Source of the DNA: Gnetum montanum
Taxonomy: Eukaryota > Plantae > Gnetophyta
DNA: 64,000 bases
Reading direction: 5' to 3'
Assembly: GCA_015680685.1 (NCBI GenBank)
Contig: MNCI01003059.1
Location: forward strand, 464,859-528,858
In this document: one piece after another, positions 1,300 through 60,053 of the stretch
Numbering within the stretch: the first letter of the stretch is position 1
Layout of the letters: every line of letters starts with the position of its first letter
The notes under the pieces: model-generated
Database searches by the model: none
Told to the model about the DNA's origin: nothing
What the model saw: only the letters and a program-made list of their open reading frames with translations
Made by a program: the position numbers and the translations under genes

Positions 1300-2943
1300 G
1301 CCATTGTGGTTGAACTTGGTATTTCTGTATGAAATATAGATGTAAAATTCCTCCTCAATGCTCATGTAAATGTGAGAAAACTGGACATTGGCCTTTGGGG
1401 TGATCGTATAGATAGACGTTATATTGATATGTGAAATTGGCAGTTGAGTTCTTATTCTTATTATCCTCTACCCTTTGTTTCGATTGCTGCATGGTGTCCT
1501 ATCTTGTTTCTTGATTTGGCATAGTTCTTCCTCTAATAATGTTGGCATATTCTCCACATCTTTCATGTACCCAATCCGTCATCTTATTGATCTTTGCCTC
1601 AATTTCATCTAGTGATTGTAGGATTGGCAAAGATGATTTCACCTCCTTGAAGTGAATGGATTTCTTCTCTTCATGATCATGGACCCTTGTTAAGTTGAGA
1701 TTTTGGTCCTATTGAGAACTTTCAACATTCTCCCATTTGGCTAGTTCTCCTTCTTCTTTTGCCACTTGCTTAATAAGCTCTTGGAGTTGATGGGTTCATA
1801 TATAGTTGACCTCGGGCGTACATCCCTAGGGTCTCCCTTGTTTCATTACGGAGTCCATCTATGATATGGTACATTAGCCTCTCCTCTTAGAACCCATGGC
1901 CTGGGTAGTTGTTTAATAGTGCATAATATCTTTCTAAGGCCATGTCCAAGGGTTCATGTTGCACTTGTTTCCATTCTTGGATTTGTCTCCTCAAGGTCGA
2001 CACTCTTGCGTAGGTTTGATATCGTTCGTTAAAGAGTCCTACCATTGTTGGTCAACGTCGTATTGAATTTGGTTTTAACGATCTATACCATACTTTTGCT
2101 TGGCCAATGAGTGTTAGAGGAAAGAGCTTAAGTTTTTGCCACCCATTATCAATATTTTTCCATGTACAGGCTTTGTAGAAGGCTTGTAAATGATGTTGCG
2201 AATCTAAATCATTCTAAAAACTTGGGAAAGTTGTTTAAATCAAGCCTAGGTAGACAACTTTCTTTATGATGTCTGTAGGATATTCGAATAGCCTCTTGTA
2301 TAGGCGTTAAGCTCTTAGTGGCCAGCAAGGGTTCATCATCACTAAGTAGGTTGTGAGTTTGTGAGTTGGGATGATGTTGCCCCTGTTCATGTTGTTGTTC
2401 TTGATTTTCTTTATGAGCTCGATTTTTAGTTCTACGTTGATCCCTTGAAAGATAGTCATTTGTGTCACAATATGATGTTGAAGGAGTAGAGAAAGAGAAG
2501 GAACTGTAAAACTCATTATGACTTTTGTAAGTCTTCCAATCATCCCCAAGTAAGTTCTTGTTAGTTATTGAGAAGGTCCTAGGCCTTTCAGGCCTCCTTG
2601 TTCTATGGGATGTTTCATCCTCACTAGAGGTGTCAAAGTTGGATGAAGAAAGTCTTTGAGTATTGTTTGGGTGTTCATAAACATAGGGGACTCCTGCATA
2701 AGGTTGAGTACTCCAGACCTCATCTTCATCATCAATTCTGTCGGTTCTCCAATGAATTGCCACATTAGTGGTTGCGGGATCATAGTATTGTGAGAGAGAC
2801 ATGATTGTGAAACTATGTGTGAATTTGTATGTGACTTTTTGTAATTATTTCTTCTTAAAAGATATGTTGTTAATTCCTATACAGCGACCTTCTATGATAT
2901 AACTAATCTAGATAACTAGCACTGTCCTCGACAACGGTGCCAA

Positions 2944-3731
2944 TGATGAGTGGTGAGGTACCCCTACACTTAACCATACGAATATGAGCGTTTCACGCAT
3001 GATCCGATCGAACTCCGTAGATGGACTAGTTGTGGTATCTAGATGGTTATCCTTAGGTCAAAGTTCGTTGTCTTCCCATCTGGACTAGTGTTAACTTTAT
3101 CACGTATGGTTTAGTCCAGAATGAGGTGTATGATGTGTTCCTATGCTAACGCGACTCCTGAGTATGATGGTAAATAAGATTAACTAAGCTAAGAGAGAAA
3201 GGGTGAGAGAGAATCTAAGCTAGCCTAAGTGCGATGAGCATCTATTCCCTAATCATCCATACACATCTTAGACTTCGTGCATGACTACCACTGGGATTAC
3301 CAAGCGCAAATCCTAGGTACGCTACCGGGTTCCCAAGTAGTCACACTTAAATGCTTGTAATCAAGTCATGCTCATTCCACATTTAATAGGAGTTTAGGGT
3401 AAGAAGATATTAACTAAGAAAGTAGTAAATAACAATTAAATAAATAATTAAGCTAAGTGAATGCTGCAATGATGAAGTAATCTTGATATTTATTTCTGGT
3501 CATGTGCGTGTCCAAGTACGTCACACTCAAATAAGGATGTCGTACAATTACAACAATCACATTGCGGGCATGCATAAGGAGAGAAGGGTTGAGAGGAAAA
3601 AAAAACTAAAATCAAATCTTAACTAACTAAAAAACTCCCTATCGGAACTATCTACCTCTTATTTATAGATAAGGAGACAAGCTACGATATTGCATACGTG
3701 ATATCGTGGTTGACTAAATGGCGACTCATCA
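2944..3731 (-). repeat. 5' LTR of element A
   Basis: TG...CA inverted termini (tgatgag/ctcatca), TATAAAT on minus at ~3661-3667, adjacent PBS. Confidence 0.85.
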
Positions 3732-4830
3732 AATGGTTTACTAGGTTGGCAAACTCATTTTTGTCTTGATCAACAAGCTTGAATGCTCTGTTGTTGTAGG
3801 CCTTAGTGACTAGGAAAGACCCTTCCTAGTTAGCTAAGAATTTATCTGTGAGTTTGTGAACATCCTTGAGGACTAGGTCTTGTTTCTTGATCGAACACTG
3901 ATGCTGGTTGTGAGAGTGCTTTTGCCATTGCTTTTCTTAGTACCATTTAATGTGATTAAGCATGTGCATATGCTCATCCTCTATTAAGTCAAGGTATAAG
4001 GTTCTCAACTCATTGTTTTAACCTTCATTGATGAAGTCCGATAGGATCACCTAGAGCAATGGAACTTGCAATTGAAGTGGAAAAATTGCTTTAGACCTAT
4101 AAACAAGGTTGTAAGGTGTCATACTTGTTACTATTTGATGTGTCATGTAATAGGCCTAAAGAGTGTGGACTAGTTGCTCGTGCCATCATTGTTGGTTGTT
4201 GCTTAGCATTTTCTTGAGAAGGTTGGTGATGACCTTGTTAGTGGCCTTCGCTTGGTCATTTTCCTAAGGGTAGTATGGTAATGACAAGGAATGTTTGATG
4301 CCAAAGTGCTCACAAAAGGCTTTAGTCTTGGCACTGCTAAACTATGGCCTGTTGTCCATTACTATGGTCATGGGTAAGCTGAAATGGGTCACTATGTTGT
4401 CCAACACGAACTTGCAAACTTGTTACGATGTTGTCTTCCTAAGGGAAATAACCTCAACCCATTTGGTAAAATACCCAGTTATGGTTATTATGAAGTTATA
4501 CCCCATGAAGGAATTAGGTGTTATAGGTCTGATAATGTTGAAGCCCCAATGTTGGAATGGCCATGTGATTTGCATTGTATGCAATTCAGTTGGTGGCATG
4601 TGCATTAAGTTGCTATGCCATTGACAAGTGTCACACATTTTGACTTTTGAGATGTAATTGCTTTCCATGTAAGGCCAATAATAGCCTAGCTCTCTGATTT
4701 TTGCTATCATTGCCCTAGGTGCTATGTGACCTCTGCATAATCCTTTGTGGACTTGCTCAATGATTGTTGTTGCTTCATTTTCGCTTACAAAGGTTAGCAA
4801 TATGCCATCATAGGATTTGCAACATAACAT
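3732..4830 (-). pseudogene. Integrase of element B
   Basis: HHCC region VHKGLCRGH...YYWPYM...CDTCQ, then WPFQHWGFNIIRPI and YFTKWVEV; core continues with stops. Confidence 0.9.
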
Positions 4831-5059
4831 GTTATCACCTATGATGACATAATATCATGAACTTTTATGTACTGCATTCTTTTGAGCAAAGGTTTAAGTG
4901 TTGTAGAGGCTCACCTTGTAGAAGGTACACCTTGATATTGTCGTACCAGTCTTTTGCATGGGTTGTGCTTATTGTGGCTATGGATGTGATGTCGGTGATT
5001 TGCATGATAGGCACAGTGTAATCCACCACCAAGGTGGGCAATGCATCGAACATGCTAGG

Positions 5060-5440
5060 TACGATGCTAAGGGTTACATTGCTAGTGTGTTGGTAATGAC
5101 ATTTTCATTTTGGAGAATATGTTGGACATTGGTAGTTGCAAAGTGTTGAAGTAGGTGCTTTGCAAGGTCACAATAAGGCTATAAATGTTGTGCCTTGCAG
5201 GTGTAAACCTTTGTTACCTAGTTGACCACTAATTGTGAGTCACCCTGGATCACTATGCATTGGATCCCTACGTCGCATGCTACAAGGATACCTTGAAGGA
5301 GGCCTTCATACTTTACCACATTGTTAGTGCAAGGAAATGCAAAACTATATGTGAAGGGTTGGATCTCCCTGGAGGGAAATGTGATAATGATAACAATGCT
5401 ACCCCATTAAGAGGTTGAAGCTCTATTGAAATGCAGGAGT
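5060..5440 (-). pseudogene. Additional (archaeal-type) RNase H domain of element B
   Basis: Manual translation gives CTNNVVKYEGLLQGILVACDVGIQCIVIQGDSQLVVN...HILQNENVITNTLA, the aRH pattern of Tat-clade elements, placed between RH and INT. Confidence 0.75.
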
Positions 5441-5559
5441 GCCTCATAGTTGTTGGGCACTTAGTAATGTTATGAACATGCTCATCTGGGAATTCAAGGT
5501 CTATGGTTGCTTGGTCATTTACGGGTGAAGCCATGAGTTGTGTGACTATAGCTTGACCT

Positions 5560-6720
5560 TTTGTTGAGGCTGACGTAATGTAGGCCAAACTCTAGTATTA
5601 TTGCTTTCCACCGTGTAATGCGACTACTTTCGTAGATATTTTTTTTATGGCTTGGATTATTTTGTTTTTGTGAATGATATTAACTTGGCTACAGAAGAGG
5701 TAATGCCTCCACTTCATTGTATTTTACCTCATAGGCTACTAATGCATGGCTCAAGTAGTAAACTGGGACTTCTACATCATCATCTCGCTTTTGATAAAGC
5801 AAAGAAGCGATGGATGTGTTGAAAGTAGCAAGGTAGATGTAAAAAGGTTTATGTCCTTGTGAAGAGTGAACTGTAGGCAGTTGTGCCAGTTCTTACTTAA
5901 GGTTGTCAAATGCTTGTTGGCATTGAGTAGTCCACTTGNTGTAGGAGTAATGTATCAACACACGATGACATACATCTTTAGTGATTACATGCTAAGTTTG
6001 CTTAAAGACTACGTCGATGACATTGCCATTAAGTCCAAAGTGGCCCACAACCATGCAAATGATTTAGACTTAGTGCTTAAATGCTACTTAAAACATGAGC
6101 TTAGGCTAAATCCCAAGAAGTGTATTTTTGGCATAAAAACTAGTAGAATGCTTGACTTTGTAGTATCTGAAGCAAGAATATGCGTAGACCCCAACAAGGT
6201 TAAGGCCATAACCAACTTAGCACCGCTGGTTAACCTTAAAGAGCTATGAGGGTTATAGGGTAGATTACAATTTATATNCCATGGTATCGATTATTGATTA
6301 GTACTAGGCAACAAGAAGTCATCTTTGATGGTCACCTTGTTTAGGTCCAAAAAGTCTATGCAAATGCATATACTTTCATTTTTCTTAGGCAAAAATATGA
6401 TATGGAAGACCCAATCTGCATAGTCAATAGCCTGAATGAAACCAACTTTGTAAAGCCTGGTAATCTTGTCATGGACTGCAAATGCCACCTTAGGTCTAAC
6501 CTTGTGTGCTTTTTGCTTGACTGGTTTAATGTAGGGATCAAGGATGATGTTGTGCTAGATTAGCTAAGGGTCTAGGCCTGGCATGTCCTCATATGATCAT
6601 GAAAATGCTTTAATGTTATCATTAAGCACTATAGCGATGTCTTGAGCATGTCAGGGCTTGAGTGAGGAACTTAATGTTAACATTCTTGCCTCACCATTAT
6701 GTGTTGCCATAGGGATCTTG
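5560..6720 (-). pseudogene. RT/RNase H of element B; central RT block 5940-6278 is inverted (plus strand)
   Basis: Minus: GFIQAIDYADWVFHIIFLPKKNESICICIDFLDLNK. Plus, between single Ns at 5939 and 6279: YQHTMTYIF...DYVDDIAIK...LRLNPKKCIFG...VDPNKVKAI. Confidence 0.85.
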
Positions 6721-9089
6721 ATAAGGGAACTGTTTGTGACATCTCTTGCCTCTAGATCAAGAGCCTTAACTAGATGGTTAGGCTAGTTTAGTGGTGTGTC
6801 TACAGATGCTATGTGCTCATTATAGGTGGTAGGCTCAAGGCCTAGGCAATGAGGGTTAATGCATTGTTGAATGTCACCATGAGGCCTCGTGAGGACCAAA
6901 GGTGAGAAGATCAACTATTACATAGGCATGTTGTGTTCCTGCAAAAATAAACTAGAAAAATGTTAAGTGGCACCTACTTGACCTAGTTATTATGCACCAA
7001 TGAAAGAAAGTAATCAAGTAAAAACTTACCTAAGTATGCACGTAAATAGTAATGAGAGGTAAACATGTTGGTGCTAGTTTTAGGTCTTAGCAAATTGCGG
7101 ATGCCCCAAACATGCCATTCTGAGGAGGGTTGGCCATGCTCGAGGAGTGGAATTAACTCGAGCATTTGCAAGGTAGCAAAAAATTACAATTTTGGGCTAA
7201 GTGTAGTTGACTACACTTTCATCCAACTATGCTCTCCACTAGGTGTTTGGTGTGGAGCATAGTCCTAAGTTGGTTGGGCATTAAATTACCCCAGGAGGGT
7301 ATATAGGCATGTTTTCACCATGGTAAGTTTGTCATTTTCTTACTTTTAACCATGACGTCTAGAGCATAGTCTTGCCATTGCACCTACTTTTTCTAGTAGT
7401 GAAGAGCGTAGTTGAGGGAAAGATGATGCTCCAGAGTGAACACCTTCACCCATAACTAGCAAATGTGGCTGAGGGAGAGAAGACATTGAGATGCTTACTA
7501 TAGGCACATGTGGAGGAGAGGAGGTTGTCAGTGTCAGCTAGGTACATTGACTATGCTCTTCCTTTTTTTTGTTTTTTATTTATTCTTGCAATTTTTTGGA
7601 GAGCTTGGGAGCATAGTTCCATGGTGTCGCTTTGTGTGGCTTGTCGTAGTAGTGGCTGCCATGGATATGCATCATTTGGGGCATGATGTAGTGATTGGGA
7701 GGATGCAACAGTAGGAAGTCACTACACAGGAGGGTTTTTCCTAGCTATAAAGCTTTGCTACACCTTCGGTGCAACCCATGGTGGCTACCTCAATGCTATG
7801 CGATGCGGCTGCGAGGGTTGTGATTTTGGCCCTTTGAGGCTGCATGGGTTTTGAGGGCCATTATTGATGCAAGAATTTGGGTTTTGCATAGTAGGAGAAG
7901 GCTACGTGTGGACTGGGGAAACATGCGTCGAGTGTTCTACCCCCTCTTTTTCTCTTCTTTTTTTATGTCTAGTGGTGCATGATTGAGGGTCACGGGACTT
8001 TGGGTCTCAATAGTGCAGCTATGACTGCTGTGATGGTTCCAACGATGATGGGAGGGGACATTAGAGTAAGCATGATTGGGGTAGGCTCCTTTTTGTAGGG
8101 TTAGGGTTAGTGCATCATGCCTTGTGGTGCGATCATTAGAGCCATGATCATGACCGCGCACTACGACATAGCCCTAAGGAGCTATACCTACCAACATGCC
8201 TCGTTTGTCTGTGCTCCTCTTTTTTTTATCCTTTTAGGTGATGCAAGGGTTTTATGGGAGTGCGTGGGGTTGAGGCACATGTAGGGTTTAGTGCATGTGG
8301 GTAGTTAGGGTCACATGCATGTCGTGTGCTATAGGATGACTGTGGAGGCTAAGGCTACCATTGCATGCTATGGAATTATGACGTAGTTGTAGGAACCATG
8401 GCTATGATTGTGTCTTGTGACATAGCCATAGGGGTTGCATTTGCGATTGTTGGTAGAATTTTTGTGCATCTATTTTTTCTTATTTTTGTGTTTTTTGGTT
8501 GCAATGGTGGAGGTGCAGCCTGTCGCAATAGCAGGGCAAAGTGGGTTGTTGGGCATGATGTCATGGGAAGACTATGCTCTCCACAATGCTCTCCACAACT
8601 GTGGGACTATGCTCTACATGTGTGGAAAACATAATTTGCAGGGAAAGTTCTTGGCAAAATGTATGGTCCAAAGTTAGTAAAAATTTTGCAATTCTCGGGA
8701 CTACACTCTTCACTGAGGCTGTTTAGAGTTAGAAAAATTTTTGCAATTTTTTGGACTATGCTCTTCATTGAGGTAGTCTAGAGTTTGTCAAATTTTACCA
8801 AAATTTTGTTAACTATGCATGATGCTAAACTTGCANCTACCAAAATTTTGTTAACTATGCATGATGCTAAACTTGCAAAATGTGGCACTAAGCCTATACA
8901 AAACATGCTATACCCTAGTGAATGCCAAGTGCATCGAACGAGTTAAGTGATGTCGTACACTTGCGGGGCCTTAGGGTGCACTGCCAAAATTGCATTTCTA
9001 CTAATTTATGTTAATAATTTTAATGTGTATCAAAATTTTGCCCTATGCATGCTTACTAATGCTTTGCCTATTGCTTGTTATTTGCAAGG

Positions 9090-12000
9090 TGCTACTGAAG
9101 CCTATTCTAATAATGGTTGAGCTCATAGGCATACTATGTTGCATGAGCAAACCCATTCCTAACATACCCACACCAGATATGTGGGCGGACCATCAAGTGG
9201 TGTGGTTCCGGCTAAGGGCTTGGGAGTTCCTAGAATACCTATTGTAGTAGTTCAGTGTGATCATGTGGTCGTACTTAGTGGTGGAGGTTGCTAGTGCTAT
9301 CACCAAGACGTTGCTACTTGAGGCTAACCGGAGCATCTTGAAGTTCATCTCAGATGAGTTTACTGCTAACATTGATAGGACAAGAGGTTCAAGTAAAGGT
9401 TCTAGGAGCACTTGGTAGCTATCCAGGGTATGGCGCAGGATAGGGCTTGCTTGTTATAATAAGAGCAACACCCTCTTTATTGCACAGCAGTTGCATACCT
9501 TATTTTAGGATCCACCTAGAATGATCTACTGCACCAGAGGGTAAGTGCTTTTACGGCTCTTGTAGTGTTTCTTACTACTTGCTCATGTTAAATTGCTAAT
9601 AGCTTGTGGTTAATGCCAAGTTCATAGTTGATGAGAAATGCCTACATGATGAAGTGGATGCTCTAGGCTTGACCTACACTACCCTGTAGGTATTCTTATC
9701 ATGTACAAATCTTTAGGCAACCATGATTGAGTAAGTGGGGCACGATCTAGATGCCTACCCCTCTCAATACCTAAAGGCATATGAGCGATGTAGAATCCAC
9801 GGCTGGTTGGATGAGGAGTGGATTGTTGGTGAGATTAACATTGAGGAGATGCTTGTAATGCCAACCCTGTCTCACACCCTATTTGTATCATGTATGTATC
9901 TATGTTTTGGCTCATGTGGTTGCTCATGTGTGCCTTTCAGTTTACCTCATTTACATGATGCTAAAATTGTTTTGCTTTGTGTTATAGCAACGATTGCCTT
10001 AGCCAAGGTGACAGTGATCACCATGGATAGCACAGAGGCCACCCTCATCATGAAATATGGTGATGTAGAGGGTCTACAACACTGGTTGTGCCATAAAGTG
10101 CCAGATGTACTAATGGCTTAGCTCATGCATGTTGGGTTAATGGACCTATTCTTGGCCCTTAGCTTGAGTATCTGAGTGGCTGAAATGGTCACCATCATTA
10201 ACTTCTTTAGTAGCAATGTTAGGTAGTTTGTCACCCAGGTGTGTGGCATGACGGTAGTGTTAGACCTTACTGAGGTCTTCTTTGCTAACCTTTTTGGCAT
10301 CCCTACTAATGGCCTAATGATTGTTGATAAGTCTAGTAGGGAGGTGGACTGCAGAGGAGAGATCAAGGACTGGTTAGATGCCACTCAATCTCACAAAGGC
10401 ATACCAATCAAAAATGTGTTAGTGCCTGAGGTGTAGGAGCTCTACCCTCTATTCTACACTTGTGCCTTTCCAAAGCTACTTTCCCAAGGAAAGATCCTAG
10501 GGGTGGAATAGGCATGGGTGATGAAGGAGGTGCTGCTAGAGGGTATGAGGTTTAATTGGGCCATGTACATAGCCATTATCTTTCATGCAAAGATTTCAAG
10601 GCTATGATTCAACCTCCAAGAGAGGTTCCACATCCATTTTGTGTTTTTCACAAGATACCTATGAAAATTCATAGAGCTCTTGGTTGTTTGAGATGATGGA
10701 CAGTGGGTGGTGCAGGATAGTGAGTAGTTTTCTAGGGCATAGATGAAGTATATGTTCTCAACCACATGCACATAGGACCCTCCCAGAAAGGATCGATGAG
10801 TCATTATCAGTAATGACCAAGGGTCCCGTGGGGCACTCACATTACTCGTGTGATAGTGTAGGTGAGGGTCCTCCAATTGGGACTAGGGACATGAGCAAGG
10901 TAGATCACTATATAGAAAAGATGGTGGGGCCATCTAAGACCAAGATTAAGAGGCTGCATCCTCAAGAGAAAGTTTCCCTTGAGATCAGGAAGCCAAGTAG
11001 CAAATGGATCCACATCAAGCTTTAAAGCTTGCGTGTAGATGTTGTAGGTTAGTATGCATAACTTCTTGGATGCCTTAGTTTCATTCATGCATATACTACC
11101 ATTTTTTATATTTTTATATTATGCTATATTTAGCTAATTATGTGTTATGCACACTAATGTGCTATATGTGTATACGTGTGAATTGTAAAAAAAGAAGAAA
11201 GGGCTGTAAGAGCAGTGGCTGAGGCTATAGCAGAGGAAGTGACTCCTCAAAATAAGGAGGAGGATGCCTAGGGAGATGAGCCTCATGAGGTAGTGAAGGC
11301 TCTCTGGCGGTTGGAGGAAGAGGGGTTGCTCAACCTCGATGGGGGTGATTTTGATAGTTTTTTCGATGGTACGTAGCTAGGTGAGCCCCCTGCTCTCACG
11401 CCTGAGGGCTTACTAGGTAATCTACTTTTATTGCCATTTGTTTTCCCTTGTATGCTCTAGTATCTTTAGCTATAAGGCCACATGCTAATGACATTGTTGT
11501 ATTATAGCATCAAATATTCTCACTAGTGGTCCCACATCTACCTATCGCATGGAGCTAATGGGTAGATATGCCAGATAAATTGACCTTCATGGAAGGAATT
11601 TTTGAGGACATTGTGGACTACTTGCGATTAGCAGACCCTAAGCTCGGTATGCATGCAATGTTATTTGCTTTGTGATATCTTGATCATTGCTCAAATGCTT
11701 GGGGTGCTAATATGTGTGCAATACCTATAGGTCCTAAGCTGTAGTGGGACCTAAGTAAGGTGGCCAAGGTGAATGCCTTGCTAGACCTTGCTTCCAAAGT
11801 TGATCAGGTGCCTCGTCACATGTACAAGACAATGAACAAGTGCAAACTTTCCTATGCAAAGGCATTGTGGGTTTGTAGGTGCTCGAATGAGCACCTGTGG
11901 AAATGTGTGCATGAATTGTAGGAGAGGGTGATCGGCCAGGATGAGAAGATCAATGATCTTCAATCTAGATATGATTTCATAGTAGCTAGATCACAGGGAG

Positions 12001-12718
12001 ATAGCACCTAGAGTACCACTAAGATTGAGTATACCAAATATTGGATAGCTCTTGGAGGTAAGAACAAGGCCACGTGGGAGTTAATAGAGTAGCGACTTCA
12101 GATGGACTTACTTGCCCAAAAGAACTAGGATTGGAAGAATTACAACACAAAGGTTTATCAGTGGGGACAAATGCAGAAGAACCACGAGCATCAACACAAG
12201 AGAGAGCATGACGTGTACCTATGATGGTACAAGGAGTCTACCAAATGCCACTGCCTTGAGATTTTTCATGAGGTGATTAATGGGAAGCAGACATATGACT
12301 TCTTTGCATAGAGTACGGTCATGAGTGACTCTCCCATGAGGGAGATCATCACCCCCTCTAGAGAGGTCTCTTCTACTACATTTTCTATGAAGCCACTTGC
12401 AGGGACCATCATGGACAATAATAAGATCCTTGCAGGTATTAACTTTGGATAGGAGGACTAGATGTAACTTTCTAAAGTTAAGATTCTTTGTCACTTGGAG
12501 GCTAGCCTTAGAAAGTTACCTCCAAAGCTCATTGATGTAGTACCCTCTTAGGTTATTTTTTTTTCTTTTCATGTTTTAAGTTAGCTCATATAGTGCATAT
12601 TTGCTTGCTAATTGTGCATGTTTGTTAATGGTTGTGGCAAGTACTAGGCGATGCTATAGGCCCTAATAATGCAATGAAGGAAGAAGAACTTCCACCCCCA
12701 CCTAGTGCCACTGGTTGA
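9090..12718 (+). pseudogene. Antisense multi-exon accessory gene in element B (putative plant transposon protein / Transposase_32-like core plus coiled coil)
   Basis: Exon ~9990-11050 reads VVLDLTEVFFANLFGIPTNG...RFNWAMYIAIIFHAKI. Donors gtaagt (~9541), gttagt (~11048), gtatgc (~11647) are followed by T-rich introns. Charged coiled-coil exon ~11730-12200. Ends MKEEELPPPPSATG* (12674-12718). Family call is by motif resemblance only. Confidence 0.55.
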
Positions 12719-12920
12719 GCATGACCTGGTGTACCTCCCGTTGGGCTTTTTGCAACTTTTTTGCTATCTGATGCTATTCATGCTATGTATTCCTATACAT
12801 ATTACATTTGCTATCGATGATTATTTGCTATGTGTAATGCATAAACTTTGATTCATATATGGTCATTTTTTGCTATAAGTATGTGATTCTGGGCCATTGT
12901 GAGCCATAGAAAATGTGTTG

Positions 12921-13372
12921 TTAGTTTAAATCCTTGATAGGCCCCATGCCAGTTTAAGGCCATAATGGGGCATGCATTGCTAGTTTAATGCCATAGAGGG
13001 TTGAGGTGGTAGTTTAAGGCCATTCCATGCTGATGGTATTGTGATAGTTTAAGGCTATTTCAGGCCTAATGATAGTTTAAGGCTGTTCCAAGTTGCATAT
13101 TGCTAGTTGAAGGCCATTCTAGGCCATGATGATAGTTTAGGGCCATCCTAGCCATGGATTGTTAGTTTAAGGTCATTTTGAGCTTGGCGATAGTTTAAGG
13201 TTGTTCTAGGCCGTAGTCAAGGGATTAAAAGTGATAGTTTTAGGTCATTATGGGCTGCATATCACTAGTTTAAGGCCATTTTGAGTCATGTTGATAGTTT
13301 AAGGCCATTTTGGGTTATGAATTGCTAATTTAAGGCCATTTTGAGCTATAGAGTTGCCAGTTTAAGGCCATA
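12921..13372 (+). repeat. Degenerate tandem array of ~15 units of ~30 bp, core AGTTTAAGGCCA
   Basis: Cores at ~12951, 12982, 13011, 13046, 13074, 13105, 13134, 13164, 13192, 13237, 13268, 13296, 13328, 13359. Spacing alternates ~28/31 bp. Confidence 0.9.
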
Positions 13373-13699
13373 GCAAGCTAGGTATTGCTATCTCTCTTTT
13401 TGTAATTTTGGCTTTTATGGTTTTTATGCATTTTGATGTTTTTAAAGTAATGACTACAGAAGTGTAAACTAATAAGTAAGTGCATGAACAAAGCAGATAC
13501 CTATGAGAATCAAATAAATAAATGTACAATACAAGCAATTAAGCTAAATGTAAATAACATGCTACCATGCTAATCTAATGCAACACAAATGCAACAGACG
13601 TAGAGAGTATGGTATAAGACATGTATAAATGAATAATGGGTAGGCACCTAGTGTGTTTTGGACTAAGGGGGTACCTTAGTCACATATTTGATTCTTAAC

Positions 13700-14389
13700 T
13701 TAATGTGGGTTAGGAGGTGCATAGGGCCTAAATTGCACTATCTGGTATTCTCCTTGACCCTCACTTGATACGTCAAAGAGCAGCTCTGCCCAAAGGGTGT
13801 CCTCTAGGAGGTCACTAGTTTCCATTACTTCTTCAGGTGTGTCAACCTCATGCATTTCATTGTCTACCATAGGTGAGTCATTAGGAAATTCAATCTCTGA
13901 CCCTTGCTCCATATCTATGTTGTTGATGTCTAGAGGGACAACATTATCACCATGGATGATAACTTCACCACCTACATACGGAAGGTGGATCTCCTGATGA
14001 ATCGAAGAGGAGATAGCTGATAATTGGGCTAGCCAAGGCCTACCTAGTATTAGGTTAAAGCCCAACATCTTCTCTATGATGATAAGTTTGATACTGGTGG
14101 GGAATTTCTCCCCTACTACGAAAGCTATGGTGATCGTGCCCTTGACAATGACACATGACCTATTAAAGGATTTCAGATATGTGCTCTTCATTGGTTTAAC
14201 TTGGTCTACAAGGCCTAGCTTGTTGATGACGATGTATGGTATAACATTTGTTGCTACTCCTTCATCAACATGTACTCTATGAATCTTACATTGTCCAATG
14301 TGTATGGTGATAAACATTGGAGCCGTTATGACCTCACCCTTCTTAGGGTTGACCTTAATTACCTCATTGTGATATGCTAGGGATGTCAA
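13700..14389 (-). pseudogene. Aspartic protease of element B
   Basis: IHRVHVDEGVATNVIPY...FNLILGRPWL, typical Tat-clade retropepsin motifs. Confidence 0.85.
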
Positions 14390-14399
14390 ACTTGATTCC

Positions 14400-17170
14400 T
14401 AGGGTACATGGGGCAACATCATTGTGTGAAAATATTTCTCATCTGCAAGGATGTCCTCCATAATAGGAATGGAGGTCAACATTTGCACCAATTCTTTACG
14501 ATGGGCAGACAAGGTTATGATTAAGTCATACAAGCTCAATGTTGTATTTTTTGCTTGAGCACTTGCTTAACTTGGGCTAATGCATCCACAAATTCATTAC
14601 CATTGGCCATGTTTTTGTTGGTTTTAACTTCCTCCATGCATCCTAAGAGATGGATTTCTCATGGAGGTGACTTTGACCTTGTTTGCTTAGCCTACGTGCT
14701 AGTTGCAATTTGGTTGCAATTAGTGCTTGGTTGCAATTTTCTAGTTGTGGTCTCCTTAATTATTTTGGCCATGGGGATCATAGATATAGGTACTAGCTTT
14801 GATAGATTGAGTGCTCTTTGGTCTTGATGTTGCCTAATCATTCTATTTGCGAGATGTTCATTAGGTCTCCTGGGTCGTCACCTAAAGGATTTGCTACTGT
14901 CACCAGCAAGATTAACCCTTGAATAGGAAGGGACTAATGCATTGGCTGCCATTGGGCTTTGGACAAGTAAAGGGTTAGCACGTTGTGGCACCTTGACAAT
15001 AAAGGGTGGCTGAACTGTTGTTGTCGCAACATGTTGTGGGGCCTTAATCATAAAGGGTGTTGTGGGTGCTTGAGGTAGCACTCTGACAATAAAAGGGAAT
15101 CTCAAACTCATGGGGGCTAATGGAACCCTTGCACTACCATAGGGCACCCAGGACACAAATGGTTGCTACACCAATTTTGGACCATCGTCGACATTGATAG
15201 TGTTTATGATGTAGCTAGCATCATTTGCATTTAGAGGGTAATTGTACACCCTCATGGATTGGTCTTGCAGCTTGATTGGATTTGTAGCATTGAGGACTAG
15301 CTCACCTCTATCGATCATCTTTTGTAGATCATCTTATAGGGATAGGTAGAAGTCTATGCTATGATCGGACAACTGGTGGTAATGGTAGAACTAGTTTAGC
15401 TTAAAATTTGTTGGGACTGGGGGCTCATTTGGTGCCATTAAGACAGATTTTTGAAGCAGCTTGTAGTACCTATCATGTCTTTTATAGGCGTCCTCAAACA
15501 TTTACTTATATTGGATGTGCTTGGCTTTTAATAGTTACTCTAGTAGCTTTGAGGGCTTTAAAGGCAATAAGGTGTACTTGGAGCAATCCTTACGCTTGAA
15601 GTTAGCCCTTTAACTGACTTGCATTGTGGCCACTACAGATGTAGGTGGGTTGGTTGTCTTGGCACTAGGGTTGGTATCTTTGTTGTTGGCTGGGGCTTTG
15701 GGTGGCCTAGCTGTCAGCCCCTAGTTGGTTGCCTTGGCCTCTTTAGCTACCTCTACCACCATTGTAGTTTGTTTCCCTTGTCCTTGTCTCTCCTCACATG
15801 TTGGTTCTTGTATGTGACATAGGTTAGATCCTTACTAGATTCCATCATGTCCTCTATGATCTTAGTTTAGGCGAAGGCTTGGCTTAGGGATTGCAGGCCT
15901 AAGTAGTACAACTTCTACTTTATGAAATCATTAACTGTGCCCTTGAAACTAGCTAAGAGATGTGGCTCAGCTATGGGCTCTCATATTTCATTTAACGAGG
16001 CACTCCATCATTGTATGAATTTTTGAATGGGCTCTAGGTGGCCTTGTTTGACCTACATTAGCTAGTCCAAGGTTGCTTTTAGCTTTAGGTTGTATTTGAA
16101 GCATGTCATGGACTAGCTCAAGATGTCTTCTAGAGATGAGTTAGAGCCTCTAGGTAGTGCATGGTACCAATCTAGTGCTTTGCTAGTTAATGACATGGCA
16201 AACACGTACATGATGGCATGCAGCCATGCTTGCAGTAGCAGGCACATGGACTTAAACATGACCAGATGCATGTTGGAGTCTCCTTCGCCATTGTACTTGG
16301 TGAATTAAGGTAGTGGGACCCTAACTAGTAGAGTTAGAGGTGGAATTGTAGGACTTATAGGGTCATCTTGGTAGAAGTCCACCACTTTGACAATTTTAGA
16401 GGAGGAAACTTTGAGTCACTTCACCTCTTCTATCAATGTTTGGATTAGTTGGAATGCCTAGTCTAAATTTTGAGATGCTCCAGCTGGCTACATTGGTTGT
16501 GCCATCCATTGTGTTGGTTGTGTGGCCCATGACCTAGTTGCAGGTTGCGAAACCACACGAGGTGCTTGATGCATTAGTTGTGTTATAGGGATAATGCAAG
16601 CCATGCATGTGTGGGTTGGACCAATGCTAAGGGCATCAACAAAATAGGTAGGACATAGGGTGCCTGAGTCATTTGGGGCATGGAGACAGGCCTTGCATGA
16701 ACATATGGTTGAGCTGGCATGATTATTGTTGGCAAAGAGGGCTGAGTAGGTTGAGATGATGCCATGAAGGGCAAGTTGAAGGGAGCTATGGCATCATAAT
16801 ACATGTATTTCATTTAACAGGTTGCCACCATAGGCATAGATCTAAGCTGGATGGAGTGGGAAGGTGATGCTGGTGCTATGACTATCTTGGGAAGGATGGG
16901 TGAACTAAATCGAGGGGCCAGACTAGGGATTACTTGTTAGAAGATGGTGGGAAAGGGGGCCTCATGTTCGGAGCAAGCTTCGAACTTGTCCACTTCCTCC
17001 TATAAGGCTTCCTTGTAGTTAGTTCCAATGTTGCACTCACATGTTCAAATGAGATAGGATAATAATCAGTGGTGGGAATTTATGAGTAGGATGATGTTGA
17101 ATGAGGAAGAGATATACTCCCATCCCTCCCTGTGGATTAGTTTAAAGTCTCATTTGCCTCCATGTCAAGG
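14400..17170 (-). pseudogene. gag: gag of element B
   Basis: Minus ~15850-16310: FTKYNGEGDSNMHLVMFKSMC...FAMSLTSKALDWYHALP...VKQG..EPIQKFIQ (Retrotrans_gag). Decayed His/Cys knuckle ~15300-15390. Pro/Gln-rich linkers. Confidence 0.75.
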
Positions 17171-18934
17171 CGAGTTTAGGTAACCCTACTTGGTCCTTTG
17201 CACATATGAACTTGTATTTTTCATTTCTAGACATGGCATACTTTGAGTCTTGATCATGTAGCCTAAGGGATTGCCTTGGCTCGACCATCACGAGATTCGC
17301 AGGGTTGTTGATCCCGATCTCTTATTGAATAGGCAAGATGTCAAGTATGTTTGAAACTAACACCAGAGGTTGATTTGGATTCATGATTGCAAATCAAGTT
17401 GTAAAGGAAAATTGCAAAGATTGTTGGTTGCAAAATACAATGGACCAAGCTAAAACTAACTTTGTTTCAGTTGATACCACTAACTATGCTCTTCACTATG
17501 CTCTCTACTACAGGAAGCTGACTACGCTGTCTATGTTGACTACACTTTCCAGTATAAAGATCTAACTACGCTCTCCATGACAAGGAGCTGTCTACATTAG
17601 AGATGACTACAATTTAACTAAGGACAATGAGAACTTAGGAAAATAGTGGAGACAAGTGTGGTTTGGGGTTGCTACGTGAGTTCTCGGGGGGATTGACTAT
17701 GGGGTCCAATCTACACTGATGGATCAGTGGACAACTACAGTGCAGAGAGCTCATGAAACAACCTTAATAGAGCTTGAAAAAGGGGTTTGGTCCTCCTTCT
17801 AGTGCTAGAAACTATGATGACTAAAAATTTCAGTGGTTGGAACATTGAGGTTGATGGACGAACAACCTAACCTTGAATTCACGCGAGGGCCTGCAAGAGG
17901 TAGAGATGCAATGCCTTAAATGGTCTCATCAATTGAACAAGAACTTATAGGATGCAACTAGGGTGCAATGTGGTTAGCTATGATGCTGATGCGAAATGGT
18001 GCTAAGTGCTCAAGTAGTGTTAATGGTGTTAACGATGTCAATGGGTTGAGTGTAGTTAAGATTTTTGGTGAAAATGAGGGTACCAACATGTGGAGACCAT
18101 CGCCCAAGCATAGTTTTAGGCACGACTATGTGGTGAAATAATGAAAAATGTGAATAAAATGTGAAAATGTAGAGAGAGAGAGAGAAGTGAAAGACCACTA
18201 CAAATGGGGTTGAGCGTAGTTAACACCAAAAGGGGTTAGAAGGTACACAGCGTATTATAGGCATAGTGGACAACATAGTCATAGTATCAAGGGTGTTGAG
18301 CTATAAAGATTGGTGTTCCACCGAGATGTCCATGTTTGCTGGGTTGGTTGCCATAGTGTATCGTGGGCTACGATATTTTGGTGGACTGTGGTGGGCTATG
18401 GTGATTTTCAACTTCACCAATACACCTTCGGTTCTCTCCCAAGTGCTCCTTAGATTTGCCAAGTCTTTGGTTTGCTAACTTTTGAACTCTGAAATTTGCT
18501 AACTGTTGAAATTTTACCTACCCTGAAAATGTTGAGGGCATGAGTATTTATAAGCTTAGGGTTAGCAAAAGATGCAGGATGGTTGCCACTTGGCAAAGGG
18601 GACGGTTGGGACTACAGTCTCATCCAACTACGCTCTCCACTGGGACAAGTGGTGTTATGCTTGGCTGTGCTCTGCCAGACTTTGCAAGATTATAAGATTG
18701 TGACTATGCTACCAATTACATGTGTGTGTCGAGAAGACTATAAGGGTACCTAAAAAATTGCAATTTTGGAGACTACGCTTTCCACTATCTTACATGGGGT
18801 TGAGCATAGTTACAAATCTGGGGCCAAAAAGGGGATACACAAAGAAGCATTTTGCTAACTATGCTTGCTAAAGATGAGTTGGAGTTGAGCTGAGTGACAT
18901 TGCTACACTATGGAGGCCACTAGAGGCTATTCTT

Positions 18935-19510
18935 GTTGACTATGCTTGACTATGCTCTAGACTAGGGGAGAGCGTAGTCTCACACTTAGAAAAAATTGAA
19001 GAAAAAAATAGTCTCCATGTTGGCTATGCTCTCCACTAGAAGCTGACTATGCTCCCAACTGGGGGTGAGCGTAGTTCCAGGACTTGTCCAAAGTTGTGAA
19101 AACCTGCTCTTTTATTGACTATCTCCACTGGAGGCTGACTACGCTCCCAATTGGGGGCAAGCGTAGTTCCGAGACTTGTTAAAACTTGTGAAAACCTATC
19201 CTTTTGCTAACTACGCTCTCCACTAGAGGCTGACTATGCTTTGGGGTAGTGGAGAGTGTAGTCCCAATACTGAAAAAAAATTTAGCGACTAGCTTTGTGC
19301 TAACACTTAGAAAAAATTGTAAAACTAGCTTTAGTGTTGACTACACTCTCCACAAGAGGCTAACTACGCTCTCAACTCAGGGTGAGCATAGTCTCAACAC
19401 TTAGAAAAATTTGTAAAAATTGGCCTCCCATGTTGACTTCGCTCTCCACTAGGGGCTGCCTATGCTCTAGGCCAGTGGAGAGCATAGTTCCAATAGTTAG
19501 AAAAATTGTA
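18935..19510. repeat. ~95-bp tandem repeats (about 6) in the U3 of the element B LTR; each has two ACTACGCTC motifs and one inverted GAGCGTAGT
   Basis: Units begin near 18938, 19021, 19116, 19208, 19337 and 19433, e.g. gactacgctctccactagaggctgactacgctc...gagcgtagt. Confidence 0.85.
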
Positions 19511-21488
19511 GTTGGGATGCCGTAGTCCAAATTTGGTGGTGTTTCAATGATAACTTAGATAATGTAGAAGAACATCTACTGTGGAGATACAACATAAAAT
19601 ATTGGGCTCAATGATATAAAAATGCTTAGAAAATTTATGAAGAGCATTCTTTTGATATGAAGATAAATTTTTTGAAGTTTCTTTAGTTTTCAAGTATTGT
19701 ATGATGTCTTAGTATTGTTCATTTTCTTCTAAGTTAACTAAGCCAATGTGTTGTGTATTTTTGAGAGTGATTGGTATGTATTATGTTGAGTGACTTCTTA
19801 GGCACTCAAGAAAAATGTGATCTACAAGAAGAGTAACAGTAGCTAATGCATTTGCAAGCATGTTTTCTAAGCGATGGGATGCATGACTAAGCATTCATTG
19901 AACTTAGAAACCAAATTGTTGGATAAGATTATATAGTTTTTGTTAAAATTTTTTGCCATGTTATCATAGCCATAGGAAAAGATAATAAATTTTTTTGATA
20001 GTGTTACAATGATGGAATTCTTAATAACATCAAGAAAATTTATCCCAAGTTGCAGGATCTATTTCTCATTTTGGTGATTAGTAATAGCAAGTTTTACAAG
20101 AGGGTCATTGCTTAGGATGGGCTTATGGTCGAGAAAGGTAAGGATAGCTTGGAAAATAAAGTCCTCATTTATGATGTCTAACCTACAAAGTTATAGAAAA
20201 AGCATGAGGAGAAAGTTATGATGTCCTCATTTATGGTCGAGTTAGGGTCCATAACCTACAAAGCATGAGGGGAAATGATGGTTATAACGGAAAAATAAAA
20301 TAAAATATCAGAGTTATAGAAAAATTCACAAGTTGAGTGGAAACTAAGTACAAAGAAAAGAGATAGATTTTTCATATTTTAAAGTTAATCTTTACATGAA
20401 ATTTTAAGTTGGGGAAGATTTGGAAGCCTTATTGACAAGTTTGAGTGAATTCAAAGGCATCTTGGAATCTTTGTGAGGCATTTTAGGTATTGAGGCTAGA
20501 GGTCATGCATCAATCTAATGTGGTGGTGTGGATTTTGCATTAATGTCACTTGGAGGATGCATGACTTCACATCAACTTGAGAAAAAAAAAGTAAAAGTGA
20601 GATAAAAGAAAGGGATCAAAGAAAAAGTAGGGGGACCATTTGAGCATTTTTTTTTCATTTTCATTGCTCGTGATTTGTGATTTGGCTTGTTGCTTAGGCT
20701 TAGAGATGGCATCATGTGTCGAGAAGAGAAGGAGTGGAGGATAAAATGAGGAGGTAGGTGGATCCTTTTGGGGGATATGTGGGTAGGAAGGAGACACTAG
20801 GGAGGGATCCAACTTTACACTAGCATCACCTAGGTGAGTGGTCCTTGTGCCCAGCTCTTTTGTTACTTTTTTATCTGTTAAAGGGCATGGGAAGTATGCC
20901 TTTGGTACCAACGTGTGAACTATCTATATGTCGATAGTAGTCATGTGGGTCATGGTGCATCATCACTAGTGGTAGTGTTGACCATGCCATTGTTAACAAT
21001 GGTAATGGTCATGATACAAGCTTATGCTAGTGATGGTAGTAATAGTATTGGTGTTTTCCAAGTGAGGAAAGAAGAGGATTTCATTAAGGATTTTGGTGAT
21101 GAAGGAAGGATGAGAAAGGATAGGAGTGAGAGGTAGATCTAACTGATTTGTAATGTGGGTGGATACATTAGGATTTGAGAGACTTGGTCATGGTAGTTGA
21201 GGCCAGTTATGGCACTCTCATGCATAGGAGTGGGTAGGATGGTGCTAGATTGATGCTTAGGATTAAAAAAGTTACAACTTTTTTCATTGTACATGGTGTT
21301 TCAAATGGTAAGGGCCAAGCGATGAAGCATGGGCTATATGTTCAAGAGGAAGAAGAATTGATGGACGATGTGATGTTATGAAGTAGCTTGCATCAAAGTA
21401 GAATGTAGGGTAGTATTTTCTTTAAGAAAAAAGAAAAAAATTAGTTTGCTATTGCTATGTTGTGGGGGTGGGGGAGGGATGGAGGGAA

Positions 21489-21539: not shown

Positions 21540-22184
21540 NNNNNNNNNNNNNNNNNNNNNNNNNNNNNNNNNNNNNNNNNNNNNNNNNNNNNNNNNNNNN
21601 NNNNNNNNNNNNNNNNNNNNNNNNNNNNNNNNNNNNNNNNNNNNNNNNNNNNNNNNNNNNNNNNNNNNAGCGTGAAATTAAAATGCCATAGGGGCACTAT
21701 CCTTTATTTTTTAAAAAATTAAATTAATTAAATTTTTTATTATTATGAAAAAAGGTTGGAAAAGAGGAACACAAGGCTTAGTTTTAAGGGGATGATGCTA
21801 GTGCATCAACATCACTTGCGTATAGATAGTGTAGGAAGCAAGCATCCTGTGTGAGTGGGATGCTGGAAAAGAAAGTTATGGGAGAATGACCAAATGCTAA
21901 GAAGAAAAGTAGGGAAGGTTGGAAATTTATGAAGTACTAGAAAAAACCAAAAATTAACTAAGTGTTGTTAAGCAAAGAAAACTAGAAATTTTGGATTAAG
22001 TGTTGAAAATGGGAAAAATAAATCCAAAGTTTGGCTAAGCGCTGAAGAGACTATGAAATTGAAAATTTAGCTAAGTGCTGAATCTTAATATTTAATTATT
22101 GTTGTCCATGCTCTCACATCTATATCTTTGCCTTCACCTATGGATACTAACTTGTCATTTATTTTCTTGTTATGTAGGAACAAC

Positions 22185-22660
22185 ATGATTCCTAGACTAT
22201 TGGTGATTGACTTAATGTATTTCCTAATTTGTGATGTGGGTGTTTCGATCATTGGAATATCTAAGAGGGTAAAAGCTCTTCTAATAGGTGATGATTAGTC
22301 TCTCTATCCTTTTCAAATGTGGGCTCATTCTGAAGCTAGATGTTTCATGGAGTTTTACATTGAACATATTTATGTACTCATGTGAATCTTGTTGCACCTA
22401 CTTATAGTCTCCCATGCTTTTGAGAGGATCTATCTAGGTATGTGCATGAGAATATTAGGATGTGTGATCTAGAAGAACATTGATGTACATACCTTTTTGG
22501 ATGATGATTGTAGAACTAGAGATGTCTAGTGGAAGGAATTAGACTACTTGTGGAGGTATCATCCTTACAAGTAGTTTAATGTAGACTCAACTTTGTTGCT
22601 AGATCCTTGATGGGTTCAAAGCCTATTTAATCTTGCAGGAATGCATATCATAGTGTCTAG
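22185..22660 (+). pseudogene. Decayed exon resembling an FCP1/NIF (HAD-like phosphatase) domain
   Basis: After acceptor tgtag (22177): MIPRLLVIDLM...FMEFYIEHIYVLM*...WKELDYLW...FNVDSTLLLDP*WVQSLFN. This parallels the plant NIF-domain motifs LLVLDLNG / FLKFCFERFEVGIW / KELKKLW / NTLLIDDSPYKALLNP. Confidence 0.45.
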
Positions 22661-59388: not shown

Positions 59389-60053
59389 CAACTAACGTTG
59401 TGCAATGTCATGAGCTTTTCCTTCGCTGCATTACCATTTCTTTGCCAAGCCACATGAGATCCATTCAAAATTTTGTAAGTCCTAAAATTTTTTAAGTTTA
59501 AAAATTTGAGGAATGAATGAAAGATTGTGGTGTCATTCCTCCAAATTTCTCTGCAATGCAACCTGCGGCAAAATGCCCAGAAAAGGCAAAATTGTGGCAC
59601 GCTACATTAGTTTACTGTTTTGCAGTTGTAGGGTGCTACTGAAACCTGACTTAGTGGTTGTGGAGCTCATCGACATCCTGTTTTGCATCGACTGTAGTTT
59701 TTTCTAGCAGCAGCAGGCATTGGGTTCTCAGCCTAACGTCAATCTGCTGCAACAACCTCAATCTTCACGGTGACAAAAATGGCAAAAACAGTGAGATAAT
59801 TTTCAACACACCAGCAGAATAATTAGAAAAATCGACAACAACAGTCTTTTCTTTTTAAAAAACTAGCAGAATCAACAATAGCGATAGTTAAACCCTAGAT
59901 CCATGTCACGGCAGGGAGATTGCGGTGGTAGATCTGCAAATGGCGGTGATTTTCTTGTTAATCGCAGTGGTTTTTCTTGCGCTGATTCGTGTTAGGGGCC
60001 CTAATCTGCGAGAGGGTTTGGGCTTTTTTTAGAGTTTGGAGGGTTTTTCTAGC

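Follow-up and report, generated by a model that had tools for sequence, protein, structure and literature searches.

The window analysed here, a stretch of 64,000 nucleotides from Gnetum montanum (contig MNCI01003059.1), carries on its minus strand a Gypsy-type (Ty3/gypsy) element of Tat type, whose pol domains follow the order RT-RH-aRH-INT according to Pfam profiles and alignment. An additional RNase H (aRH; PF13456, 5400-5044) is present besides the native one (RH; PF17919, 5934-5707), the hallmark of the Tat clade (Ty3/gypsy, OTA), and it is placed between RH and INT, as in Tat structure #1, Ogre and Retand. Non-coding DNA parts Gag-protease (Gag-PR) from RT, as in Ogre. The copy is decayed, and stop densities indicate no greater decay in pol than in the remainder of the element. 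Outside the interval between PR and RT, the following features were located:

18357-19548, minus strand: putative 5' LTR, bounds tentative (ACTACGCTC-type motif arrays, TATAAA at 18552)
15200-17400 (approximate bounds), minus strand: gag, decayed by stops and frameshifts (reading frames; weak PF03732 match, E 0.21)
13700-14398, minus strand: protease region, a 232-aa open frame
6283-6938, minus strand: linker and N-terminal part of RT (Ty3 RT match, E 9e-4)
5940-6277, plus strand: RT core in inverted orientation, flanked by a single N on each side (RVT_1, E 3.4e-6 on the plus strand)
5707-5934, minus strand: native RNase H (tether; PF17919, E 3.7e-14)
5044-5400, minus strand: additional (archaeal-type) RNase H (PF13456, E 5.5e-12)
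3733-4960, minus strand: integrase, its last codons broken by a foreign LTR (PF00665, PF17921)
2944-3731: foreign LTR inside the final codons of the integrase (LTR ends located)

The inverted RT core between single Ns is likely an assembly artefact. The protease was named by motif alone: its open frame (14398-13700) has no Pfam match and contains what we take, by eye, to be aspartic-protease motifs. A word-index protein search with PR retained none of 381 candidates, and none of 150 pattern matches in a metagenome scan was confirmed; the same index search with INT gave one match in 564 at E<=1e-20.

The PR frame ends at 13700 and RT starts just below 6939, which confirms the 6.7-kb gap described in the first-pass annotation. 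The interval and its edges contain:

6939-7029, minus strand: predicted 91-nt intron (best donor of the interval and a strong acceptor)
7030-7165, minus strand: 136-nt stretch, 45 codons open, a candidate linker exon or first pol coding exon
7210-7617, unstranded: motif cluster A, TATATA at 7300-7305
7536-8669, unstranded: near single-copy spacer, holding TATAAA at 7746
8571-8800, unstranded: motif cluster B (depth 1,769 in bin 8670-9236)
9089-9540, plus strand: predicted exon 1, first coding exon, acceptor at 9088 (splice signals, frame)
9620-9891, plus strand: predicted exon 2 (3 stops in 90 codons vs 11 and 7 in the other plus frames)
9988-11047, plus strand: predicted exon 3, frame changing near 10740 (stops 9/247 vs 22 and 21, then 1/95 vs 8 and 10)
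11189-11416, plus strand: predicted exon 4, acidic (2/75 stops vs 7 and 9)
11508-11646, plus strand: predicted exon 5 (1/46 stops vs 4 and 3)
11731-12551, plus strand: predicted exon 6 (11/273 stops vs 15 and 30)
12641-12718, plus strand: predicted exon 7 and stop
12919-13390, unstranded: tandem array with a unit of ~30 nt, located 3' to the antisense gene
13651-13734, minus strand: conserved block at the Gag-PR end (depth 4,900-8,500 vs 230-1,700 in flanking bins)

The spliced plus-strand gene proposed earlier was recovered as a remnant at 9089-12718, with seven predicted exons and six introns of 79-141 nt, and the tandem array was likewise confirmed within the interval. All six introns begin with GT, and the AG is kept in 3/6 in this copy. 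T content is 39-52% in the introns versus 21-29% in the exons, and a branch-like CTAA lies 23-35 nt ahead of the acceptor in 7/7 cases (background 0.15); the splice sites were partly picked by branch signal and frame, and these statistics are therefore not independent. Stop density in the exon frames is 1-4%, similar to that of INT (11/409), and one minus-strand frame is equally stop-poor over exons 3 and 6 (11/353 and 7/273). Among copies, exon 3 is the most conserved exon (depth 4,100-4,200), and an in-frame 3-nt insertion at 12231 in exon 6 is carried by 12 and 5 sister contigs.

Homology searches with the predicted accessory protein returned no relatives. PF20167, PF10536 and PF04195, the families named in the first-pass annotation, went undetected by hmmscan in the exon pieces; for TRP28 (PF04195) there was no match at E<=1 in the pieces scanned, a weak test given the decayed sequence. 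Pfam matches to the exon pieces (exon 7 left out) were all sub-threshold, and the best of them, DUF1525 (E 2e-4), fell below its cut-off and was treated as chance. Exon 3 gave no phmmer match among 1.84 billion representatives and no match among 141 candidates of the word-index search. Single-sequence folds were poor (pLDDT 39 and 32), with exon 6 helical in the low-confidence model of pLDDT 32, and a Foldseek viral search yielded nothing at E<=0.001.

The interval is present in relatives, as diverged sister contigs cross both of its junctions. At the acceptor junction, one of the 16 pieces listed bridges with at least 31 nt on each side and 68 mismatches (6880-7303), in a region of depth 1,694 at 6943; at the donor junction (13674), three of the 16 pieces listed bridge with 34-51 mismatches, one of them from a second organism, with a depth of 5,079 on the inner side and 4,903 on the outer side. 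Bins across 8670-13205 reach a depth of 1,769-4,217 versus 1,704-9,524 in gag bins, summed depth being a rough ratio rather than a copy number, and some 7-12 contigs match this copy exactly. No joined PR-RT form was found among the 15 best-supported joints listed (2,459 more lie beyond these), and no sister contig runs across the whole interval. Terminal repeats and a target-site duplication (TSD) were not above chance, in agreement with the first-pass annotation. An assembly chimera was rejected, since a sister joint (8688-8841) crosses the N at 8836 and other copies cross both junctions. Since the interval is mostly as repetitive as gag and has no termini, we regard it as family architecture and not a private insertion. 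The sequence comparisons support a predicted spliced accessory gene that lies antisense between PR and RT and belongs natively to a Tat family.

The motif that the first-pass annotation attributed to the element's own LTR matches at all six of the positions it gave when CpG decay is allowed, and it also occurs in the 5' terminal region of the element; its status as an LTR motif is less secure, the window holding no 3' LTR as proof. Nearly all matches in the window (28/29) fall within 7226-8755 (10) or 17483-19488 (18), against ~0.8 per strand expected, and those in the putative 5' LTR often form inverted pairs 12-36 nt apart. Moreover, 7160-7243 aligns in direct orientation with 18542-18644 (score 61 vs a shuffle mean of 25.5 and maximum of 41). 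An LTR copy at 7200-8800 was rejected, as blastn matched only 35 bp to the 5' terminal region. The TATAAA at 7746, earlier read as promoter-like, does not qualify as a promoter of the family, since it sits in a stretch of depth 32-72 versus 1,300-4,200 on both sides (spacer values of 32 and 72, and of 47 and 73 in a second set). Motif cluster B is likely the promoter region of the antisense gene.

On the RT side, the acceptor at 6939 held up: it is T-rich with a branch-like site, and RT starts just below (Ty3 RT, E 9e-4; RVT_1, E 3e-6). The top minus-strand donor, 7029 (rank 1 of 325 GTs), lies 91 nt above it. The 136-nt stretch beyond is free of stops, whereas the two other frames have 3 and 2 (null 143/2275 windows); the candidate acceptor at its far end, 7166, lacks an AG in this copy and falls in the same 84 nt (7160-7243) that look like an LTR core promoter. 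In-frame ATGs occur upstream of the 91-nt intron at 7222, 7165 and 7066, with a stop between ATG 7222 and 7183 in this copy. On the PR side, the conserved block offers two candidate donors, GT 13699 in phase 0 and GT 13674 in phase 1. A GT does exist at 13674 on the minus strand, but the donor formerly placed there ranks only 27th among the 325 and is preceded by PR-frame stops at 13702 and 13678. At GT 13699, sister depth departs from this copy toward the donor consensus at -1 (59%, 64%) and +5 (79%, 91%), and depth in the sister contigs drops from 8,549 to 4,903; about 40% of PR-end depth stops short of continuing past 13692, given which some relatives may carry another interval. A minus-strand acceptor at 13501, as the end of a short Ogre-like intron, was discarded, the AG being absent in the 3-4 contigs that cover it. 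RNA reads at the donor number 7 and 3, with no junction among them; being few and mostly from other copies (<90% alike), they are uninformative on splicing or strand.

The reading we favour, with a probability of roughly 0.5, is that copies of the family have the 6.7-kb interval in common, with the predicted seven-exon antisense gene in it, and likely splice it out as Ogre does with its short intron. The domain order, the contents of the interval and both junctions in diverged copies are directly observed; by analogy with Ogre, splicing would likely join Gag-protease to RT-RH-aRH-integrase. Unspliced LTR RNA would be the packaged genome and give Gag-PR only, and a minority of the RNA would undergo splicing, for which two steps are most likely: removal of a ~6.5-kb intron, extending from near 13699 to near 7166, would leave the 136-nt linker exon, and the 91-nt intron 7029-6939 would then be removed. 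Phase is consistent with this chain, as 13699 (phase 0) leads into exon 7165-7030 in phase 0, which is left in phase 1 into a frame open to 6876. Against the chain, this phase-1 route must change frame near 6880-6915 to join the RT frame, the phase-0 frame having adjacent stops at 6920 and 6917. The accessory gene would be transcribed from the opposite strand, starting at motif cluster B, and because it lies on that strand its six introns would never be spliced from the genome RNA and would survive reverse transcription. More speculatively, its product could act in the nucleus as a regulator, perhaps against silencing, by binding the motif that recurs at the LTR and in both internal clusters; as the protein has no detectable homologue, this role is drawn from analogy alone. 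As to origin, the array, antisense gene and promoter, in the order that Retand has behind pol, may have settled between PR and RT, the only site within gag-pol at which splicing would render such a module harmless.

Excision as one intron, from 13674 (or 13699) directly to 6939, is doubtful; the earlier claim of an accessory gene within a pol intron is supported as to the antisense, native position between PR and RT and not as to its 13674-6939 boundaries. Phase 1 from GT 13674 corresponds to the frame open for 20 codons past the acceptor, GT 13699 shares phase 0 with the RT frame, and the conserved block extends to 13651. Nevertheless, besides the low rank of 13674 and the two stops before it, the phase-0 route via 13699 runs into two adjacent stops (6920 and 6917), and competition would be expected from a consensus donor only 91 nt away from the acceptor. 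The same native layout could also be expressed from an internal pol promoter (cluster A, TATATA at 7300-7305) that yields a minus-strand RNA, with Gag-PR made separately; here the 91-nt intron would be spliced, the RT-RH-aRH-INT protein would start at an ATG in 7222-7066, and two internal promoters would stand back to back across the spacer. We consider this somewhat unlikely, albeit the strongest competitor. In its favour are the rank of donor 7029 and an intron that matches those of the accessory gene in length, the three in-frame ATGs, the LTR-core-like 7160-7243 oriented in the pol direction, sister conservation that spans 6969-7535 and collapses beyond, and the pair of stops that ends PR. 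There is a viral parallel, as foamy viruses produce Pol apart from Gag (PMC3196705, available part). Several points speak against it: sister copies keep the PR-end block strongly conserved with a donor-like sequence, no TATA stands at the position that aligns with the TATA of the LTR, ATG 7222 is followed by the stop in this copy, and Pol without Gag requires another route into particles. We know of no plant LTR element in which Pol is made separately from Gag. An extended version, with three transcription units (an LTR-driven genome/Gag-PR RNA, a separately promoted foamy-virus-like pol mRNA, and the back-to-back antisense seven-exon gene, whose uncharacterised regulator would bind the motif common to the three promoters), is unlikely.

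That the interval is instead an element in its own right, or derives from the 3' half of a different Tat copy, and was gained by early insertion or recombination and then passively copied by a Pol-less non-autonomous subfamily, is very improbable. Its succession of array, antisense gene and LTR-like motifs reproduces the Retand order from pol to 3' LTR, as far as the accessible part of PMC11963269 describes it, no 3' region of the element itself can be seen in the window, and RT and PR depth (24,875 and 11,433) exceeds that of the interval. Against this, the higher depth of the coding domains is explained by the distant families that they also draw, and the interval has neither termini nor TSD, matches the 5' terminal region over only 35 bp by blastn, carries splice signals at both ends that face the strand of the host element, leaves pol no more decayed than elsewhere in the element, and has junctions common to more than one organism.

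The spliced-interval layout that we favour has traits in common with several Tat groups. It shares RT-RH-aRH-INT and a non-coding region between Gag-PR and pol with Ogre of Pisum and Medicago (PMC6317226, PMC4408406), whose PR-RT region, a partly spliced intron, averages 274 bp (PMC6317226) compared with 6.7 kb here. The extra ORF of Ogre is sense, 5' of gag and often a PMD (PF10536), whereas the gene here is antisense and multi-exon with no PMD match; 5' of gag, at 17400-19550, this decayed copy has no ORF of at least 100 aa. Retand, Grande and RIRE2 likewise possess an antisense accessory gene and tandem arrays over several kb (region of 2,933-6,566 bp; PMC11963269), but between pol and the 3' LTR rather than between PR and RT, and their genes are described as ORFs, mostly TRP28 (PF04195), in contrast to the six predicted introns and absence of a TRP28 match here. 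For Grande gene23, a promoter of its own and a nuclear product are described (PMC7264820). Tat structure #1, with dual RNase H in ferns, gnetophytes, cupressophytes and angiosperms, has the same domain order; the portions of its accounts at hand base their classification on where aRH lies, and no long PR-RT interval is mentioned in them (PMC10508981, PMC13468544). VANC and PMD-C, in which a TE-type protein counters silencing by way of short promoter motifs (bioRxiv 10.1101/2024.09.27.615353), offer a possible analogy and no more, as no sequence or fold link to the accessory protein was found. In the literature searched, as far as its available text goes, such extra genes are placed 5' of gag or 3' of pol only, and no description of one between PR and RT was found; the per-element tables of REXdb may bear on this novelty.

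A gene of several exons placed between PR and RT would escape detection, and annotators that chain domains would probably split such elements. If spliced as proposed, the interval would be a retrotransposon intron ~25 times that of Ogre, housing a whole gene, and antisense placement would let an element that replicates through RNA retain an intron-rich gene. The accessory protein and a defined motif at several promoters form a testable pairing, which bears on what Tat accessory genes do.

At its flanks, the element is less complete. Its 3' region is cut off by the foreign LTR at 3731, and protein P0006 aligns to 5307-3733, across the integrase, at 54%. The LTR at 2944-3731 was rejected as the element's own 3' LTR, having no match to the 5' region, a depth of 1.36 million and another gag next to it, and blastn found no second LTR for the element within the 64-kb window. 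A PBS-like site was noted in addition to the putative 5' LTR, both being tentative, and an older pol fragment is found upstream of 19548.

The Tat element, a decayed Ty3/gypsy element on the minus strand, has its PR and RT separated by an interval of 6.7 kb (6939-13674), within which lie a predicted plus-strand gene remnant of seven exons, antisense to the element (the accessory gene), and a tandem array:

about 17400-15200, minus strand: decayed gag, weak match to PF03732
14398-13700, minus strand: PR region, open frame of 232 aa
12919-13390, unstranded: tandem array of ~30-nt units
from 6938, minus strand: RT, match to Ty3 RT

The 14398-13700 frame gave no match in a Pfam scan, and we take it to be the protease from its motifs. 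Downstream of RT on the minus strand, Pfam identified RH (PF17919), aRH (PF13456) and integrase (PF00665, PF17921), and a relative, P0006, matches the element at 54% over aRH-INT. The same domain order is described as Tat structure #1, found in Ogre, Retand, ferns and several gymnosperm groups (PMC6317226, PMC10508981, PMC13468544). The RT core (5940-6277) lies in plus-strand orientation, flanked by two single Ns and with part of RT absent beside it, an inversion that is likely an assembly or scaffold artefact. A 40-nt duplication at the N at 8836 is a second apparent scaffold artefact. Since a foreign LTR (3731-2944) breaks the final integrase codons, the 3' region and 3' LTR of the element are not visible. 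Immediately outside the putative 5' LTR (18357-19548) lies an older minus-strand pol fragment (19535-19654), which matches the aRH-INT linker of the Tat element at 47%; the insertion target of the Tat element appears to have been a related element.

The arrangement of PR, interval and RT is, with a probability of about 0.9, real and common to the family. In DNA read run X1, exact own-copy contigs have a depth of about 7-12, and summed sister-contig depth, which is a rough ratio and not a copy number, is 1,769-4,217 in interval bins 8670-13205, 1,704-9,524 in gag, 11,433 in PR and 24,875 in RT. Depth is level across 13674, at the PR end (X1, 5,079 and 4,903; X8, a second run, 2,094 and 1,677), and three of the 16 listed pieces bridge this position with 34-51 mismatches, one of them from a second organism. 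The junction at the RT end (acceptor, 6939) is bridged by one of 16 listed pieces, with at least 31 nt on each side and 68 mismatches; another piece, having just 16 nt on the RT side, was left uncounted. No joint of PR to RT occurs among 15 listed joints, with 2,459 more unlisted and a short differing intron invisible in any case, and no loose end at 13675 among 13 listed, with 585 more unlisted. The first-pass annotation had noted that the interval lacks termini or a TSD of its own, and indeed none was found above chance. No contig spanning the whole interval was found, and depth drops at about 13692 (8,549 to 4,903), so that some relatives may differ there. A passive insertion is very improbable.

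The Ogre PR-RT region averages 274 bp and is itself a partly spliced intron (PMC6317226, PMC4408406, PMC12786077). In Retand-type elements, antisense ORFs and arrays lie within the 2.9-6.6 kb that separate pol from the 3' LTR (PMC11963269). The gene of Grande is driven by a promoter of its own, and its product is nuclear (PMC7264820); the same review places extra ORFs only upstream or downstream of gag-pol. The Tat element combines the Ogre position with a Retand-type module, with introns added. In the main texts of the openly available papers searched, no account places an additional gene at the PR-RT position.

Within 9089-12718 on the plus strand, seven stretches each keep one frame with 1-4% stops, comparable to integrase (11/409), and most other plus frames over them are clearly stop-richer; three of the seven predicted exons contain an internal frame change. 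The six T-rich gaps between them (79-141 nt) all start with GT, three end with AG in the window copy, and CTAA lies 23-35 nt before all seven predicted acceptors (background 0.15), statistics that are not independent, as the sites were picked partly by GT, AG, CTAA and stop signals. One minus-strand frame is likewise stop-poor in exons 3 and 6; the polarity of the predicted introns favours the plus strand. In exon 6, sister contigs show an insertion of 3 nt that preserves the frame. Exon 3 had no match among 1.84 billion representatives, predicted folds of the accessory protein were unusable, and a Pfam scan of it recovered none of the domains previously suggested (PF10536, PF20167, PF04195). 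A word search of protein databases with PR was likewise without match; the databases therefore seem to hold no close relatives, and the blanks for the accessory protein are weak evidence. A conserved non-coding block (13546-13587; depth 3,600-4,200 vs 93-230 nearby), with a plus-strand AATAAA alongside (13513), may act as a 3'-end signal for the antisense gene. The first acceptor region of this gene (9069-9144) resembles 59613-59688 (76 nt, 70%, E 9e-6), a partner near 59.6 kb that is GC-richer.

Allowing for CpG decay, a motif of the putative 5' LTR has 29 matches in the 64 kb (10 in 7226-8755, 18 in 17483-19488, one elsewhere; chance expectation about 0.8 per strand), and many copies form inverted pairs. 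Its clusters A (7210-7617) and B (8571-8800) adjoin conserved sequence (depth 1,290 and 1,769). The similarity of segment 7160-7243 to 18542-18644, both in one orientation, scores 61 (shuffles 25.5 +/- 3.9) and is due partly to the motif itself. The TATAAA at 7746, earlier read as a promoter, sits in a near single-copy spacer (depth 32-72) and was set aside. From the shared motif, and by analogy with VANC and PMD-C (bioRxiv 10.1101/2024.09.27.615353), the accessory protein might be imagined as a regulator.

As to pol, expression is most likely Ogre-like, by splicing, with the balance tipping slightly towards two steps. When 325 minus-strand GTs were scored with general plant donor weights, 7029, placed 91 nt above the acceptor 6939, ranked first; 13674, the donor first proposed, ranked 27th and is preceded by two PR-frame stops (13702, 13678), and a single direct intron from PR to RT is improbable. 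At GT 13699, most sister depth differs from the window copy at -1 (59%, 64%) and +5 (79%, 91%), in both cases towards the donor consensus. This GT is in phase 0, and segment 7165-7030, open across 45 codons (143 of 2275 null windows), begins in phase 0 and ends in phase 1; past the acceptor, the phase-1 frame is open to 6876, and the RT frame is stopped at 6920 and 6917. The simplest chain joining PR to RT would have two introns flanking a 136-nt exon (7165-7030), with the acceptor of the long intron decayed in the window copy and a single switch of frame around 6880-6915; its phase and frame matches were identified post hoc. The main rival, a separate internal promoter for pol, is appreciably less likely; the same observations are also compatible with it, as are TATATA at 7305, cluster A and in-frame ATGs. 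RNA reads over 17 kb number 1,412 and 3,605, mostly <90% alike, with 7 and 3 at the donor.

The foreign LTR (2944-3731, minus strand) is very high-copy (X1 depth 1.36 million) and has inverted ends of 8 bp as well as a PBS-like site, presumably of Athila type; it is followed by a minus-strand gag (1770-2200; PF03732, E 3e-12), and related sequence recurs at 256, 32037 and 49355. On the plus strand, a decayed, apparently spliced gene remnant (21700-25000), with a Lys/Glu-rich exon near 24380-24620, did not match the accessory gene by tblastn. Decayed RT-like frames at 60800-62500 (plus), without Pfam support, look by eye similar to RT of Penelope type or of other non-LTR elements. A second gypsy pol (52400-55100, plus), RT-RH-INT and apparently without aRH, is 24-35% to the Tat element.
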